From a virus (lineage: Duplodnaviria > Heunggongvirae > Uroviricota > Caudoviricetes): 48,078 nucleotides of DNA. The position numbers are program-made. Below, in pieces: positions 36,001-42,000 of this stretch (its first letter is position 1; each line of letters opens with the position of its first letter). The stretch lies in the IMG/VR virus record IMGVR_UViG_2529293223_000014. One strand, given 5' to 3'.

Positions 36001-39000
36001 ACCCTTTCTAATCTACGACTTGTAACCTCTACCGAAAATAACATTAACCAATCCTTACGCTCTGATAATAAAAGCGGTGCCGTTGGGGTTTGCCGTCACC
36101 GTAATAAGTGGAGAGCTTATATAAAGCTGCACGGCAAAGAAAAACATTTAGGTCTATTTAATTCCGTAGCGGAAGCTGTAATTGCGCGTAAAGCAGCGGA
36201 AAAAGAATCCATAGAATTTATAGGAGTTTTGAAATGAAGATTAAATTAAATAACGTGAGATTAGCTTTTCCTGCTCTGTTTGAAGCTAAAACTGTAAACG
36301 GCGAAGGCGATCCGCGTTTCTCCGCAGTATTTTTAATGTCTCCCAAACACCCACAACTGGAAGAAATCCGTAAAGCTATGAAGCAGGTAGCGAAGGAAAA
36401 ATGGGGGGAGAAGTGGGAGTCCATTTATAACCAGCTGGAGAAAAAACTCAATCTGTGCCTGCATGATGGTGATGAAAAAGCAGAGTATGAAGGCTTTCCC
36501 GGCAATTTCTTCCTGAACGCTGCTAACAAAGCGCGCCCAGCTGTTCTTGATCGCGATCGTTCGCCACTAATTCAGGCTGATGGACGTCCCTATGCAGGGT
36601 GCTATGTAAACGCCGTTATCGATATCTGGGCACAGGACAATAATTTCGGTAAACGCATTAATGCCTCACTCGGCGGAGTCCAGTTCCTGCGAGACGGCGA
36701 TGCATTCGCTGGCGGCGGAGTGGCAAGCGCTGACGATTTCGACGATATCAGCGAAGGTGCTGATGCTGAAGCACTAATTTAACCCTTCTTCATAGACGCC
36801 CGGTTACACGCCGGGTGTTTTTGCAAAGGGGATGACAACCTTTTGCAAAAGCATACATTGACATCCGCGATAACCAATGGGTATATTCCGCTTCATGGTG
36901 CTCAAAACACCTTTTCTACTAGCGGAAACCGCGCCCGTCAGTCATGCGGATTTTTTATGTCCATGATATTGAGAATTCAATGGTCGGGCGTGCGGCTAAT
37001 ACAACACCCTTCCGAAGGGAAATACGCCCGCCGACTAGTAGCGGTTTTGAGCGCCCGACCACCCTCTCAAAAAGGGTAAATTCAAAATATCTACTAGGGC
37101 ATAAAACCATGAGTACCCAACTCGTATTCAAATCCCACATTCTCGAAACGATCGAACATAACGGCAAATCTTGGTTCACCGCTGCCACTCTGGCGACCGC
37201 GCTGGAATACTCACGAACGGACTCAGTCGCTCGTATTTATGACCGTAATCGGGATGAGTTTTCAGTTGAAATGACAACGACCGTCAAATTGACGGTCGTT
37301 AGGAAAACCGGCTCCGTCCAAATGAATAACCGCATTTTCTCTCTACGCGGTGCTCACCTGGTAGCGATGTTCGCAACAACGCCAGTAGCAAAAGAATTTC
37401 GCCGTTGGGTGCTTGATCTTATAGAGAAAGAAACCGCTATTCCGCAGTCCTCCACGGTACTGGCGCCGCACAGGGAGTGTCTGCCGAAAATGGTTTACCA
37501 CCACAGTAGCAAATACAACCCGTACAGAGCCTACGCATGGAACGGAGAGAAGAACGTTTACGTCGGGTGCTATCCAGCCGTGGATGAGGCTGTCGCTGCG
37601 CAGAAGGACTTTTACCGGAACGGCAGCACAAAGCGTATTCAGAAAGTGCAGACAGCAATCAATGACGCAGAGAAGGAAATGTTCATCAACAATCTCCGCG
37701 CCATCTGTCATAACTTCCGGCGCATCAATGAAATCTGGCGCTCGCAGTTAATGCCTGCCCTCGAAAAAATGGATTCGAAACTGGTTTACCAGTTGCATGA
37801 TCGTTTCAGCGACAGCATGTGTGCTCTGCCGACCATAGAAGACCGCATCGGCAGATATATTCCACCCACTTTACCTCGTTAATCATTCAATCCGCCCCTG
37901 CTCAGCCAGGGGCTTTTTGTCACCGTTTAGTCCACGGAGGACACTGTCTTGTCTGAAAACATTCTATGGGGCGACCTGGAAACCTATTGCGAAATCCCTA
38001 TTACGAACGGTACCCATGCGTATGCCGAAGGCGTTGAAGTGATGCTGTTCGCATGGGCTATCAACGACGGGCCCGTAAACGTGTGGGATATCACTGCCGG
38101 TGGTGGTATTCCACACGGCTTATACGAAGCAATCGCAGCCCCTGAGACCCTGCTTTATTTTCATAACTCTCACTTCGACCGCACCGTCCTGCGTTATGCA
38201 ATGCCGCGACTGGCACCGCCAGTCGAACGTTGGCGCGACACAATGGTGCAGGCGCTGGCGCACGGCCTCCCGGGGTCTCTGGGGGAACTCTGCGAAATAC
38301 TCGGCGTCCCGCAAGACAAAGCGAAGGACAAAGAAGGTAAAGCGCTGATCCAGCTGTTCTGTAAGCCACGCCCGAAAAACAGCAAACTGCGTCGGGCCAC
38401 CAGTAAAACCCACCCGGAAGAATGGCGGCGCTTTGTTGCTTACGCCGGGCTGGATATCGAGGCAATGCGCGAAGTCTATAAACGTCTGCCGAAGTGGAAT
38501 TATCAGGGGACAGAACTGGCGCTCTGGCATCGTGATCAGCAGATCAACGACCGGGGCGTCTGCATGGACATTCAACTCGCGCGCGCTGCGATCGAAGCGG
38601 TAGACCAGGAGCAAAAGCGCCTGGCAAAGCGTACACAGGAAATGACTGATGGCGAAGTGCAGGCAGCCACACAACGGGACGCGTTGATTAAGCACATCGT
38701 TGAATCCTACGGTGTGGAGCTACCAGACATGCAACGCAGTACCCTAGAACGTCGTATAGCCGACCCCGATTTACCATCTGCCGTGAAAGAACTGCTGGCT
38801 ATCCGCCAGCAAGCCAGTACTACCAGCACCAGTAAATACAAGGCACTGATGAAAGGCGTAAGCCACGACGGGCGCTTACGCGGTACGCTACAGTTCTGCG
38901 GGGCGTCACGTACCGGGCGCTGGGCCGGACGGCTATTCCAGCCCCAGAATCTTCCCCGCCCTTCACTAAAACAGGAACAAATAGACGAAGGCATCGAAGC

Positions 39001-42000
39001 ACTGAAAGCCGGATGTGCAGACCTGCTGTTTGACAATATCATGGAACTAACCAGTTCAGCGTTACGTGGCTGCATTATCGCGCCAACAGGTAAAAAACTG
39101 GTGGTAAGTGACTTGTCGAACATTGAAGGCCGTATGCTGGCATGGCTGGCGGGAGAAGAATGGAAACTGAATGCATTCAGAGAGTACGACGCCGGAACGG
39201 GTCCGGACTTATATAAACTGGCGTATGCAAAAGCTTACGGAATTGAAGTTGAGCGCGTCACCAAAGACCAGCGCCAGATAGGTAAAGTGCTGGAATTGGC
39301 TTGCATAGCTCCGGATACTTTAGTGCTCACCGATAAAGGCTATAAGCCGCTTGTTAGTATTTCGGGCGCGGATTTGTTATGGGACGGAGAAGAATGGGTA
39401 AAACACGAAGGACTGATTTACAGGGGGTACAAAGCCTTAATATCACTGGACGGAGCAAAAATGACCCCGGATCACCAGGTGCTAACCCCTACTGGATGGA
39501 AGCTGGCAAACCTTATCGCTTTAAACAAAAATACGCTTCACCAAAGCCTGGAACTTGCTTCGGAGAACTTACCGTTATCAAAGAACTGGAAAAAGTACCC
39601 GGAAAAGACCGAAGGATACTTGTCAAATGCAAATGTGGTGCAATGCCTCACACCGCAACAATCAGCAATCTCCTTAAAGGAAAAAGTACCCGATGTAACA
39701 TTTGCGCAAAGAAAAAGCATAACGAGTATCGTAAAAAATTCTTATGCTATGCGGATGCTATTGCAGATGACGAAACCCGTCGCAGGCTACTTAACCGATT
39801 GTCTGCCGCAATCAGCCGTTGCCATAAACCCACCAACAGGTTGTTTCACAACTACGGCGGTCGGGGGATCTACGTTTGTCAGCTATGGCAGGAAGATAAA
39901 AGAGCTTTTTTGCTACACGTCAGGGAAATCAAAGGGTTTAATGACCCAAAGTTGGAAATGGATCGCATCGACAATAACAAAGGCTACGAACCGGGTAATA
40001 TCCAGTTCGTCTCCAAAGCAGACAATAACCGCAACAGAAGAAAAATCGCAGACCTGCAAAAACGTATCGACGAGCTGGAGCGATGTTTACGACATTGCAC
40101 ATGCGGGGCCTCGAAACAGATTCACGATTAAAACCGACTCAGGACATTTAATCGTTCACAACTGCGGGTACGGTGGTGGTGTGTCGGCCTTCATCACTTT
40201 TGCACTGGTTTACAGTCTCGATCTCGACGAGCTGGCGAACGCCGCACTGCCAAACATTCCCCGCGATGTTATCCGCGAGGCGAAAAGCTGGTACTACGAA
40301 TCGGTTAAACGTAAGTCAACCTACGGCCTTTCTGAACGGGTATTTATCGCCTGCGACTCACTTAAACGTCTCTGGCGCAGGGCGCACCCGGCGACCTGCG
40401 ATTTCTGGTACGAACTGGAGCGCACCGTCCGCACTGCAATCGCCACACCGCAAAAAACATTGTATTGCGGTTATCTTAAAATCCGCCGCGATGGCGCGTG
40501 GCTGCGCATACAGCTACCATCCGGACGCGCTGTATGCTACCCGTCTCCGGTTATCGAAAAAGGGAATATCACCTATATGGGTGTTAACTCTTATTCGCGT
40601 AAATGGCAACGACTCAAAACCTACGGCGGAAAGCTGGTGGAGAACGTCACCCAGGCGGCCGCCCGCGACGTTCTGGCCGGAAACATGCCGCTTATCGAAG
40701 ATGCCGGTTACAGCATTGTGCTGACGGTACACGATGAAATTATAAGTGAGGCCCCTGACTCACCCGATTACTCAGCAGAACATGTCAGCCAGTTACTGGC
40801 AACCGTTCCTGACTGGGCCACGAGCATTCCACTAAACGCCGGAGGATTCGAATCTTACAGATACCGGAAAGATTGACATCCGCGATGACCAATAGGTATA
40901 TTCCGCTTCATGGTGCTGAACACACCACAGCAAGCGGAAACCGCGCCCGTCAGTCATGCGGATTTTTTATGTCCATTTTCAGATATGGTCGGGTAGCGCG
41001 TATACCGAAAAACAGCCGAAAGGCTAAGGATACGGGCCGACTTGCTGCGGTGTTCAAGTACCCGACCGCCCTGCTACCCCGATATTGACTCATCACCCCC
41101 TTCCGGTTTATGCTCACCGAATCTCCCAAATGGAGATCGGGATTTGCAACCCGGAATTGTTAGGGGCGACACCAGACGCGCCAGCGTCTTTTTTATTGTC
41201 GCAAGCTTTGCCACGTTCGCATTATGGCGGGCTGGCGGGGGCGCTTCGGCGCGCCGGTTTCCTCTAACGCCGGTATTGCAAACCTCGTCAGTTCGCCACC
41301 CATATGAGATTTGCAACTCAGTGGTGGCGGTGAATTTCACCGTTAGAGGTAACTGTGATGGCAGCTCAACTCATCCCCGTTTTCAACGGCGCTATCGCCA
41401 ACGAAATCACCCTGCTCTGCAATGCTCGCGATCTGCACGCATTCCTTGGGGTAGGGAAAGTGTTTGCAGCATGGATTACATCACGAATTGCAGACTATAA
41501 ATTCGTTGAAAATCAGGATTATATCGTAACGTTTTCCAAAACTGGAAAGCGTAAAAATGTTCTTTGTAAGGACTACCACCTCACCCTCGATACAGCCAAA
41601 GAACTGGCGATGGTCGAGCGTAACGAAAAAGGTCGCCAGATACGCCGATACTTCATCGAATGCGAACGCAAACTGCACCAGCAGTCCTCCACGATACTGG
41701 CGCCGCACAGGGAGTGCCTGCCGAAGATGGTTTACCATCACCAGAGCAAATACAACCCGTACAGAGCCTACGCATGGAACGGAGAGAAAAGCGTTTACGT
41801 AGGGTGTTATCCATCCGTGGATGAGGCTGTCGCTGCCCAGGAACGCTTCTACCGGAATGGCAGCACGAAATGCATTCAGAAAGCACAGACCGGAATCAGT
41901 GACGCAGAAAAGGAAATGTTCATCAACAATCTCCGCGCCGTCTGTCATAACTTCCGACGTATTAATGAAATCTGGCGAGCGCAGTTAATGCCTGCTCTCG

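Follow-up and report, generated by a model that had tools for sequence, protein, structure and literature searches.

Repeated leader cassettes on both sides of a phage polymerase gene as probable parts of P1-style antisense RNA modules for antirepressor-like genes

The window analysed here is the whole of a 48,078-nucleotide (nt) stretch of Caudoviricetes DNA, the IMG/VR record IMGVR_UViG_2529293223_000014. Its polymerase gene (37949-40876) is bracketed by two near-identical cassettes, each of which lies upstream of an antirepressor-like gene, ant1 or ant2. The direct repeat consists of two blocks, one of 55 nt with 93% identity (36857-36911 and 40872-40926) and one of 44 nt with 100% identity (36921-36964 and 40933-40976), with a 3-nt indel between them. 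Each cassette carries the promoter-like site TTGACA-18-TATATT, which matches the consensus at 11 of 12 positions, and these two are the top promoter-like sites within 36600-42200 in a consensus scan. The direct repeats and the scan agree with an earlier note on this DNA, which described near-identical cassettes with this promoter and with a hairpin followed by T6. The 3' end of each cassette is a 5-bp hairpin, CCGCG/TGCGG, with an 11-nt loop (36929-36949 and 40941-40961), followed by A and T6. This hairpin is weak and is absent from a simple terminator scan, whose loop limit is 8 nt. Copy 2 overlaps the end of the polymerase gene, as had been noticed before: the stop codon TGA (40874-40876) lies inside the -35 box.

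The products of ant1 and ant2 have different N-terminal domains and share a C-terminal part of about 145 amino acids (aa) that is about 90% identical, in agreement with the earlier reading of the two genes. That each cassette precedes an antirepressor-like gene is true of the order but not of direct adjacency, because 143 nt (copy 1) and 379 nt (copy 2) filled by structured RNA genes intervene. At curated thresholds, an Rfam scan gives four matches, all on the plus strand and all between a cassette and a gene. The parts of the two cassette-led modules are as follows.

36858-36887, plus strand: module 1 promoter-like site TTGACA-18-TATATT (consensus scan, 11/12)
36895-36957, plus strand: leader 1, with a length of about 63 nt for a transcription start at A36895 (sequence, folds and complementarity to RNA 1)
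36982-37068, plus strand: putative c4-like antisense RNA 1 (Rfam sRNA-Xcc1 RF02221, 70.3 bits against a gathering score of 53, full length)
37066-37097, plus strand: predicted target of RNA 1 on the ant1 mRNA, with a2 CTCAAAA at 37066-37072 and b2 CTACTAG at 37091-37097
37109-37882, plus strand: ant1, antirepressor-like gene with a Bro-N domain (Pfam, E = 2e-11)
37894-37913, plus strand: terminator-like hairpin after ant1 (terminator scan)
40873-40902, plus strand: module 2 promoter-like site, with the polymerase stop TGA 40874-40876 in its -35 box (consensus scan)
40910-40969, plus strand: leader 2, with a1 TGAACAC at 40917-40923, b1 CAGCAAG at 40928-40934, the hairpin 40941-40961 and T6 at 40963-40968
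40987-41075, plus strand: putative c4-like antisense RNA 2 (Rfam sRNA-Xcc1 RF02221, 72.8 bits, full length)

In the predicted folds of leader 1, for which A36895 is the presumed transcription start, the site a1 (CTCAAAA, 36901-36907) occupies the loop of a hairpin with the stem GGUG/CACC, and b1 (CTACTAG, 36916-36922) is single-stranded. The hairpin 36929-36949 and the T6 run 36951-36956 follow. RNA 1 contains the complementary sites: b' (CTAGTAG, 37035-37041) lies in the loop of its hairpin 2, and a' (GTTTTGAGC, 37044-37052) in the junction to the closing stem. Its 3' tail is ACCC. On the ant1 mRNA, a2 again lies in a loop, that of a small hairpin CCCU/AGGG, and b2 abuts the Shine-Dalgarno sequence UAGGG. 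The three-way complementarity of the leader, the RNA and the ribosome-binding site is exact in this module. As judged from the Rfam structure lines and the positions of the sites, the Xcc1-type RNAs, 87-89 nt long, share the architecture of C4 RNA: besides the closing stem there are two hairpins, of which hairpin 1 is capped and hairpin 2 has a large loop, a junction that is single-stranded, and an ACCC or GCCC tail at the 3' end.

In module 2, b' (CTTGCTG, 41041-41047) and a' (GTGTTCA, 41050-41056) of RNA 2 are perfectly complementary to both sites of leader 2. The two cassettes differ exactly in a1 and b1, and complementary differences are found in each downstream RNA. Because these differences are mirrored, and because the 5.9-kb region 36300-42200 is 99.9% identical in Escherichia coli VL40, an independent complete genome, the repeat is not a duplication artefact of assembly, a possibility that had been raised earlier. 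For each RNA with its cognate leader the crude duplex energy is -24.3 or -26.5 kcal/mol, and RNA 1 with the ribosome-binding site gives -17.7 kcal/mol; cognate duplexes overall range from -17.7 to -29.2 kcal/mol, compared with -5.7 to -16 kcal/mol for non-cognate ones. The consensus scan finds no further plus-strand promoter-like site between 36888 and the ant1 ATG at 37109, so RNA 1 and ant1 probably depend on the module 1 site, and probably all parts of a module are made from the cassette promoter.

The same arrangement recurs in many other sequences. A scan of IMG/VR with the hairpin pattern gives at least 120 stretches containing 102 distinct modules. Matches of at least 6 nt were counted in fixed positional windows and compared with permuted pairings of leaders and downstream regions. 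The sites b1 and b' match in 98 of the 102 distinct modules, compared with a mean of 25 and a maximum of 38 in the permutations. All three sites, b1, b' and b2, agree in 90 (permuted mean 5.5, maximum 12), and in 81 of these 90 b2 ends 8-12 nt before the ATG. The relatives contain 42 distinct cores. Their a1-hairpin stem covaries, occurring as GGUG/CACC, GGAG/CUCC, AAGG/CCUU, GAGG/CCUC and GCUG/CAGC; the stems are listed per sequence, since loops of 7 or 8 nt put the MAFFT alignment of the leaders off register. Among 75 distinct complete downstream open reading frames (ORFs), 27 have AntA, 18 Bro-N, 9 Rha and 6 ORF6N domains, and 17 carry P22_AR_C, the C-terminal domain of the P22 antirepressor.

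The b sequence differs, at all three sites, in the Shiga toxin (Stx) phage Nil2, in Stx2a_F451, in the IMG/VR contig L085, in the relative L110 and in others. The module upstream of antB in Nil2 has the b sites CAAGTAG, CTACTTG and CAAGTAG; Stx2a_F451 has two tandem modules with the b sequences TCGAAAG and CCCAAAAG, and L085 has CAAACAG. As in module 1, a2 lies in a hairpin loop in Nil2, F451 and L085. A hairpin with a U-run follows b1 in each flavour examined, namely the Xcc1-type leaders, P1 (48283-48310), F451 module 2, L085 and isrK. The U6 run of the cassette type is present, and the stem of 5 bp, with its loop of 11 nt, covaries in F451 module 2 and L085.

Several other candidates were set aside. 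Of the 87 stretches that an initial scan of IMG/VR yielded for the a1-hairpin pattern, L085 alone is real by profile search. A scan of species-representative genomes with the leader pattern gave 14 matches, none of them enterobacterial; none fits the leader-plus-RNA profile, and all are judged to be due to chance. The loop conserved in the leader hairpin (CCCGNNAG) was also considered as a pairing partner for the 5' strand of the c4-like RNA, but the longest matches are no better than those of permuted leader and RNA pairings. A long-range stem UUCCGC/GCGGAA enclosing a1 and b1 is predicted only when the fold begins at the -10 box, and is not relied on because its 5' strand is probably upstream of the transcription start, a conserved A lying about 7-8 nt after the -10 box. 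A full-text literature search for the leader sequences found none.

Module 1 closely resembles the immI region of phages P1 and P7. In the GenBank record of P1, the order is the P1c4 promoter, a 'putative a1 target site', b1, c4, a2, b2 and icd-ant. Both systems have a collinear promoter, a1, b1, a hairpin with a U-run, an RNA of about 80 nt, a2, b2 and gene, with similar spacing. In both, a2 directly follows the RNA and b2 is placed at the ribosome-binding site of an antirepressor-type gene; the loop of hairpin 2 holds b' and the junction holds a', and specificity is contained in two sites of 7-9 nt. There are also differences. The RNAs beside the cassettes match sRNA-Xcc1 and not C4, and the leaders do not match the c4-a1b1 family RF03163. 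There is no icd-like upstream ORF here, so that b2 abuts the Shine-Dalgarno sequence of the ant gene itself. Unlike P1, a single prophage here has two or three modules of different specificity. The P1 leader itself is matched by RF03163 with 51 bits, and the stretch of P1 that separates b1 from c4, GCGGACAACCGCAGATTTCCGATATTGCGGTATTTTTGTGTCC, is visibly similar to the 3' part that is invariant in the cassettes, GCGGAAACCGCGCCCGTCAGTCATGCGGATTTTTTATGTCC. Neither cassette is matched by the Rfam family isrK RF01394. Judging from their sequences, the cassettes would be functional counterparts of the a1b1 and IsrK leaders but not detectable members of those Rfam families.

P1 c4 RNA is known to be excised by RNase P. 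By combining this analogy with the sites described above, it is possible to propose how such a module works. The promoter of the cassette would drive a transcript comprising the leader with a1 and b1, the c4-like RNA, a2 and b2, and the antirepressor-like gene. The c4-like RNA, about 80-88 nt long, would probably be cut from the read-through transcript in the same manner as c4. It would then probably pair with a2 and b2 and block translation, keeping the antirepressor off in the lysogen. Comparison supports well a role of the structured RNAs as antisense regulators, with two short sites that would pair with the ribosome-binding region of the downstream gene. As the leader has the sequence and polarity of the target, it is the antisense RNA with which it pairs and not the ant mRNA; it would thus be a same-sense structural copy of the target, with a in a hairpin loop and b single-stranded. 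Most likely, the leader competes with the mRNA for the antisense RNA. It could do this within the precursor (in cis) or, if transcription stops at the hairpin and U-run, as a short separate RNA (in trans). This competition would set the threshold at which the antirepressor escapes from repression. A competition idea of this kind, by Citron and Schuster, is given for a1 and b1 of P1 in summary form in the supplement of PMC2864571. The cassettes are probably the promoters and decoy-carrying leaders of two P1-style antisense RNA immunity modules for antirepressor-like genes, and the explanation as a whole, competitor role included, appears likely to a similar degree. The start and end points of transcription, the processing, the translational repression and the competition are its presumptive steps.

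A number of observations weigh against this explanation. Even at E <= 10, the Rfam family C4 RF01695 gives no match on 36982-37068 or 40987-41075, and RF03163 matches neither cassette. When a leader profile is compared with 50 kb of P1, the syntenic segment is the best match, but with E = 0.42. For these reasons homology to P1 is unproven, and what is shared is the architecture. The promoters and the hairpin are consensus-level calls, and the term antirepressor is taken solely from the names of domain families (Bro-N, AntA and the shared C-terminal domain), so that the function of these genes is a presumed one. The 102 relatives were picked by the hairpin pattern, which makes that hairpin conserved by construction, and they are partly related to each other; such kinship, if anything, raises the permuted counts. 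As regards module 2, no close type-2 target is found in the near-identical host genome VL40 at the sensitivity of megablast, and because module 2 has no a2 and b2, the role of competitor does not apply to leader 2 in cis.

Premature transcription termination of the replication genes is the outcome of immunity in the satellite phage P4. There, a processed RNA (CI) lies between complementary sites, seqA upstream and seqC downstream, on the same transcript (PMC4825925). The modules described here likewise have sites on both sides of the RNA on one predicted transcript; unlike in P4, the downstream site overlaps a ribosome-binding site. A P4-like attenuator is the main, if unlikely, alternative: the c4-like RNA would pair in trans with a1 and b1 on the nascent leader and alter termination at the hairpin and U-run. 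The leader would then be no competitor but a point at which transcription of the RNA and of the antirepressor is controlled, in a form of autoregulation. The presence of a hairpin and U-run after b1 in every flavour examined fits such a role, as do the GCGG, CCGC and GCGG segments adjoining b1, which permit alternative pairings in the predicted folds, the seqA-CI-seqC analogy, and the modulation of the IsrK terminator by STnc1160 suggested for Gifsy-1 (PMC4825925). However, the alternative hairpin, GCGG-AAA-CCGC, has only 4 bp and leaves the terminator-like fold standing in the predicted structures. In F451 module 2 the terminator arms are changed (CCAAC/GUUGG) and the upstream GCGG is not, so the proposed antiterminator does not covary, and in Gifsy-1 constitutive STnc1160 did not reduce the effect of IsrK (PMC4825925). 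The earlier note proposed small-RNA control of the antirepressor by analogy with P1 c4 or P22 sar, and the collinear order of immI bears out the c4 analogy; what does not hold is the leader as the regulator, since the antisense RNAs lie downstream of it. A leader of about 70 nt that itself represses the antirepressor gene as an antisense RNA, like c4 or sar, is very improbable. Its promoter, short length, hairpin and U-run do resemble a small RNA gene, but CTCAAAA and CTACTAG have the same polarity at 36901 and 36916 as at 37066 and 37091, which precludes pairing with the mRNA, and the complementary partner is the Rfam-detected RNA in between. The sar logic in particular fails: in P22 immI a small RNA also limits antirepressor translation, but sar arises by opposite-strand transcription across the ant ribosome-binding site, whereas the regulator in the window is on the same strand, in cis, and the consensus scan finds no minus-strand promoter-like site in 36600-42200. 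Even less credible is attenuation by a leader peptide, in which a short ORF (MVLKTP...) would be translated and the position of the ribosome would control the hairpin. This ORF, which the earlier note considered conserved, is indeed open in both copies, but it has no Shine-Dalgarno sequence, its ATG is at or near the predicted 5' end, in Nil2 and L085 it is just 6 codons long, and numerous relatives keep the RNA features and have no ATG at all.

Module 2 demands separate consideration. No second copy of the type-2 pair of a2 and b2 (CAGCAAG and TGAACAC) is present anywhere in the window, which makes RNA 2 an orphan; one extra CAGCAAG is a chance occurrence inside the helicase gene and was rejected as a type-2 target. 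An intact form is found in L110, where the 3' end of the polymerase gene, the same leader and the same RNA are followed by GAACAC…CAGCAAG and by a gene of the Bro-N type that shares 83% identity with ant1. The window diverges from L110 exactly within the a2 hairpin, at …CCGCCCTGCT|ACCCCGATATTGAC, and after the breakpoint come a promoter-like site, isrK, C4 and an AntA gene. Module 2 would thus have lost its own a2, b2 and gene by recombination, and would now lie ahead of a complete isrK-C4-AntA module, whose specificity is a third one. It is possible, although doubtful, that the module 2 cassette and RNA 2 are a non-functional remnant of this recombination and that the repeats matter only as homology for the shuffling of ant modules. 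The missing type-2 target in the window and, by megablast, in VL40, the breakpoint placed exactly at the a2 hairpin with an intact form in L110, and the mosaic module content around the polymerase gene among relatives all speak for a remnant. Set against them, leader 2 and RNA 2 keep perfect complementarity at both sites and a full-score Rfam match, the identical fusion occurs in L115, and in L111 an independent orphan RNA of a different specificity is joined to the same isrK unit. Moreover, even an orphan antisense RNA could have an effect in trans on incoming phages.

The unit that now follows RNA 2 has the following parts.

41085-41194, plus strand: promoter-like site 41085-41114 (consensus scan) and isrK-like leader 41121-41194 (Rfam isrK RF01394)
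41220-41303, plus strand: predicted C4 antisense RNA (Rfam RF01695, 70.6 bits against a gathering score of 45)
41310-41349, plus strand: predicted target of the C4 RNA on the ant2 mRNA, with a2 TTTGCAA at 41310-41316 and b2 CGTTAGAGG at 41341-41349, covering the ribosome-binding site
41355-42119, plus strand: ant2, antirepressor-like gene with an AntA/AntB domain (Pfam AntA, E = 1e-24)
42131-42150, plus strand: terminator-like hairpin after ant2 (terminator scan)

The isrK match (41121-41194) is marginal, at 50.9 bits against a gathering score of 50, and the 5' half of isrK is also matched by RF03163 (41108-41157) at a sub-threshold 29.8 bits, E = 1.3e-5. The isrK-like leader has a strong terminator, 41174-41189 followed by T6. 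Its a1 (TTTGCAA, 41143-41149) lies in the loop of the second hairpin and its b1 (GTTAGGGG, 41159-41166) in the following single strand. The C4 RNA carries b' CCTCTAACG (41261-41269) and a' TTGCAAA (41276-41282), and pairs both with a1 and b1 of isrK, with one G-U pair at GTTAGGGG, and with a2 and b2 at ant2. By complementarity, the adjacent C4 RNA has its a1/b1 leader in the isrK element; in Rfam, isrK is without a clan, and C4 and c4-a1b1 stand together in clan CL00128. In L106, the 3' end of another c4-like RNA (about 1198-1220) lies upstream of an isrK-C4 unit, and the junction of that RNA, GGTTAGCAC, and the a' site of the C4 that follows, GTGCTAACC (1422-1430), are complementary, so that one antisense RNA might pair with the other. 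In the window no comparable match exists between RNA 2 and C4.

This unit is similar to the IsrK-STnc1160-orf45-anrP region of Gifsy-1, in which a terminated leader with partial read-through is followed by a structured RNA and an antirepressor gene, as in 41121-42119. In Gifsy-1, the terminated short IsrK activates its own read-through mRNA in trans, switching on orf45-anrP, and the adjacent STnc1160 RNA is processed from the IsrK read-through transcript (PMC4825925). STnc1160 occupies the position of the C4 match in isrK-type modules, from which we infer that it corresponds to Rfam C4. The published Gifsy-1 model, however, consists of alternative mRNA structures around orf45 and not of c4-type pairing through a' and b'. 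In contrast to IsrK, the repeated cassettes are not detectable homologues, and they have a hairpin far weaker than the terminator of isrK.

Both Xcc1-type RNAs of the window score above the curated threshold of RF02221, a family described as an RNA of Xanthomonas integron cassettes, upstream of symE. sRNA-Xcc1 of Xanthomonas is a stable RNA of about 88 nt (PMC2996969) and lies upstream of a gene it may control (10.1101/2025.06.18.660453). The copies in the window differ in being located in a prophage ahead of antirepressor-like genes. In enterohaemorrhagic E. coli EDL933, homologues of sRNA-Xcc1 and C4 are abundant and have very low ribosome coverage (PMC5331693). The sRNA-Xcc1 literature searched makes no connection with c4-type a/b logic or with a target-mimic leader, and leaves the role of this RNA open. 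In APSE phages of Hamiltonella, a c4 RNA between the DNA polymerase gene and a BRO-N gene occupies the position of module 2, and its a' and b' are matched both at the polymerase gene's 3' end and ahead of the BRO gene (10.1101/2020.03.17.996009). The elements in APSE are Rfam C4 and isrK; the window differs in having an Xcc1-type unit there and a second such unit upstream of the polymerase gene.

The region around the polymerase gene has a mosaic history. The phages most closely related to this one, vB_EcoM-606R2 and others with about 96% identity, lack both cassettes and all four RNAs, and they have different genes on both flanks of the polymerase gene. Among 5426 complete E. coli genomes, 395 match part of 36300-42200, and only 5 hold at least 80% of this region. 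Most of the matching genomes have the polymerase gene without the cassettes. The suggestion that the direct repeats mediate deletion or exchange of the polymerase gene is thus not borne out: no variant with such a deletion was seen among the complete E. coli genomes compared, and in most related E. coli prophages the polymerase gene is present and both cassettes are absent. The unit of leader 2 type plus RNA 2 type occurs in 117 of the 5426 genomes, and RefSeq has no annotated feature under it in 6 of the 8 E. coli rows among the matches listed for these 117. The junction at which the polymerase stop lies within the -35 box (AAAGATTGAC, 40866-40880) is the same in L110, L116 and L118, and the lineages sharing it have different leader types (hairpin type and loop type); it looks like a fixed left boundary for the exchange of ant modules. 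On the right, the repeated C-terminal coding block of both ant genes is closely followed by terminator-like hairpins that are near-identical, GCCCCTGCTCAG[C/T]CAGGGGC with T5 after it (37894-37913 and 42131-42150). The modules thus share their left end, the leader, and their right end, and differ in the middle. Farther downstream, an integrase gene (46206-47609, minus strand; Pfam Phage_integrase) is followed by a partial ORF (47818-48078) with, by eye, the cysteine pattern typical of 4Fe-4S ferredoxins, and 46206-48078 looks like the end of the prophage and the start of the host chromosome.

The neighbouring genes have some unusual features of their own. Relative to a 96%-identical relative, the polymerase gene contains an insertion of 288 aa (39302-40165), which begins with Cys and ends with His-Asn followed by Cys, and which thus looks like an intein. 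An ORF of 250 aa (39379-40131) inside the insertion, in another frame, matches the HNH endonuclease PHROG 374 (E = 4.7e-37); both frames are open across about 750 nt. The same out-of-frame layout is found in the intein-containing polymerase of Salmonella phage vB_SalS-S10. A report from 2025 describes a 'hidden' out-of-frame HNH gene in an insertion element that lacks splicing domains (PMC11855218); in the window, by contrast, the out-of-frame HNH lies within an intein-like element. An HNH_3 endonuclease gene (35722-36237; Pfam E = 3e-19), between the genes of a DUF2800 nuclease and a single-stranded DNA-binding protein, is missing at that position in vB_EcoM-606R2 and probably encodes a homing endonuclease of the free-standing kind. 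Two Arc-like ribbon-helix-helix genes (42939-43076, plus strand, and 43073-43426, minus strand; Pfam Arc E of about 1e-9 and 1e-10) lie just upstream of an antirepressor-like gene of the Rha family (43768-44574). This arrangement (42939-44574) recalls the mnt/arc/ant layout of P22, and the prophage has three antirepressor-type genes in a row under apparently different controls.

No new mechanism is involved. The paradigm (P1 c4, IsrK and P4 CI) and the RNA families are already known, and that three specificities, including an orphaned one, occur together is a detail of this prophage. What is gained is that an unannotated repeat, real and widespread, becomes a readable regulatory unit. In the searchable literature, neither sRNA-Xcc1 as a c4-type RNA nor its leader, a class of its own captured by no Rfam model, appears to have been described; sRNA-Xcc1, whose mechanism is open in the literature, is here linked to the P1 c4 paradigm. 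The upstream decoy is kept as strictly as the target across at least 42 specificities, which argues for a selected function of a1 and b1, a point left 'putative' in the annotation of P1. A more far-reaching idea, tentative and on balance improbable, is that the leaders act as short trans-acting target mimics ('sponges'), that orphan RNAs such as RNA 2 are kept on purpose, and that both, with dozens of a/b specificities in circulation among E. coli prophages, form a network of cross-talk. If so, one prophage or incoming phage could silence the antirepressor of another by a matching c4-like RNA, or unleash it by a matching leader, and sRNA-Xcc1 would be a mobile c4-type switch, found also ahead of toxins such as symE. 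For the annotation of Stx and other lambdoid prophages, the finding offers a simple rule that predicts pairs of antisense RNAs and antirepressor genes, as well as prophages that could cross-react.

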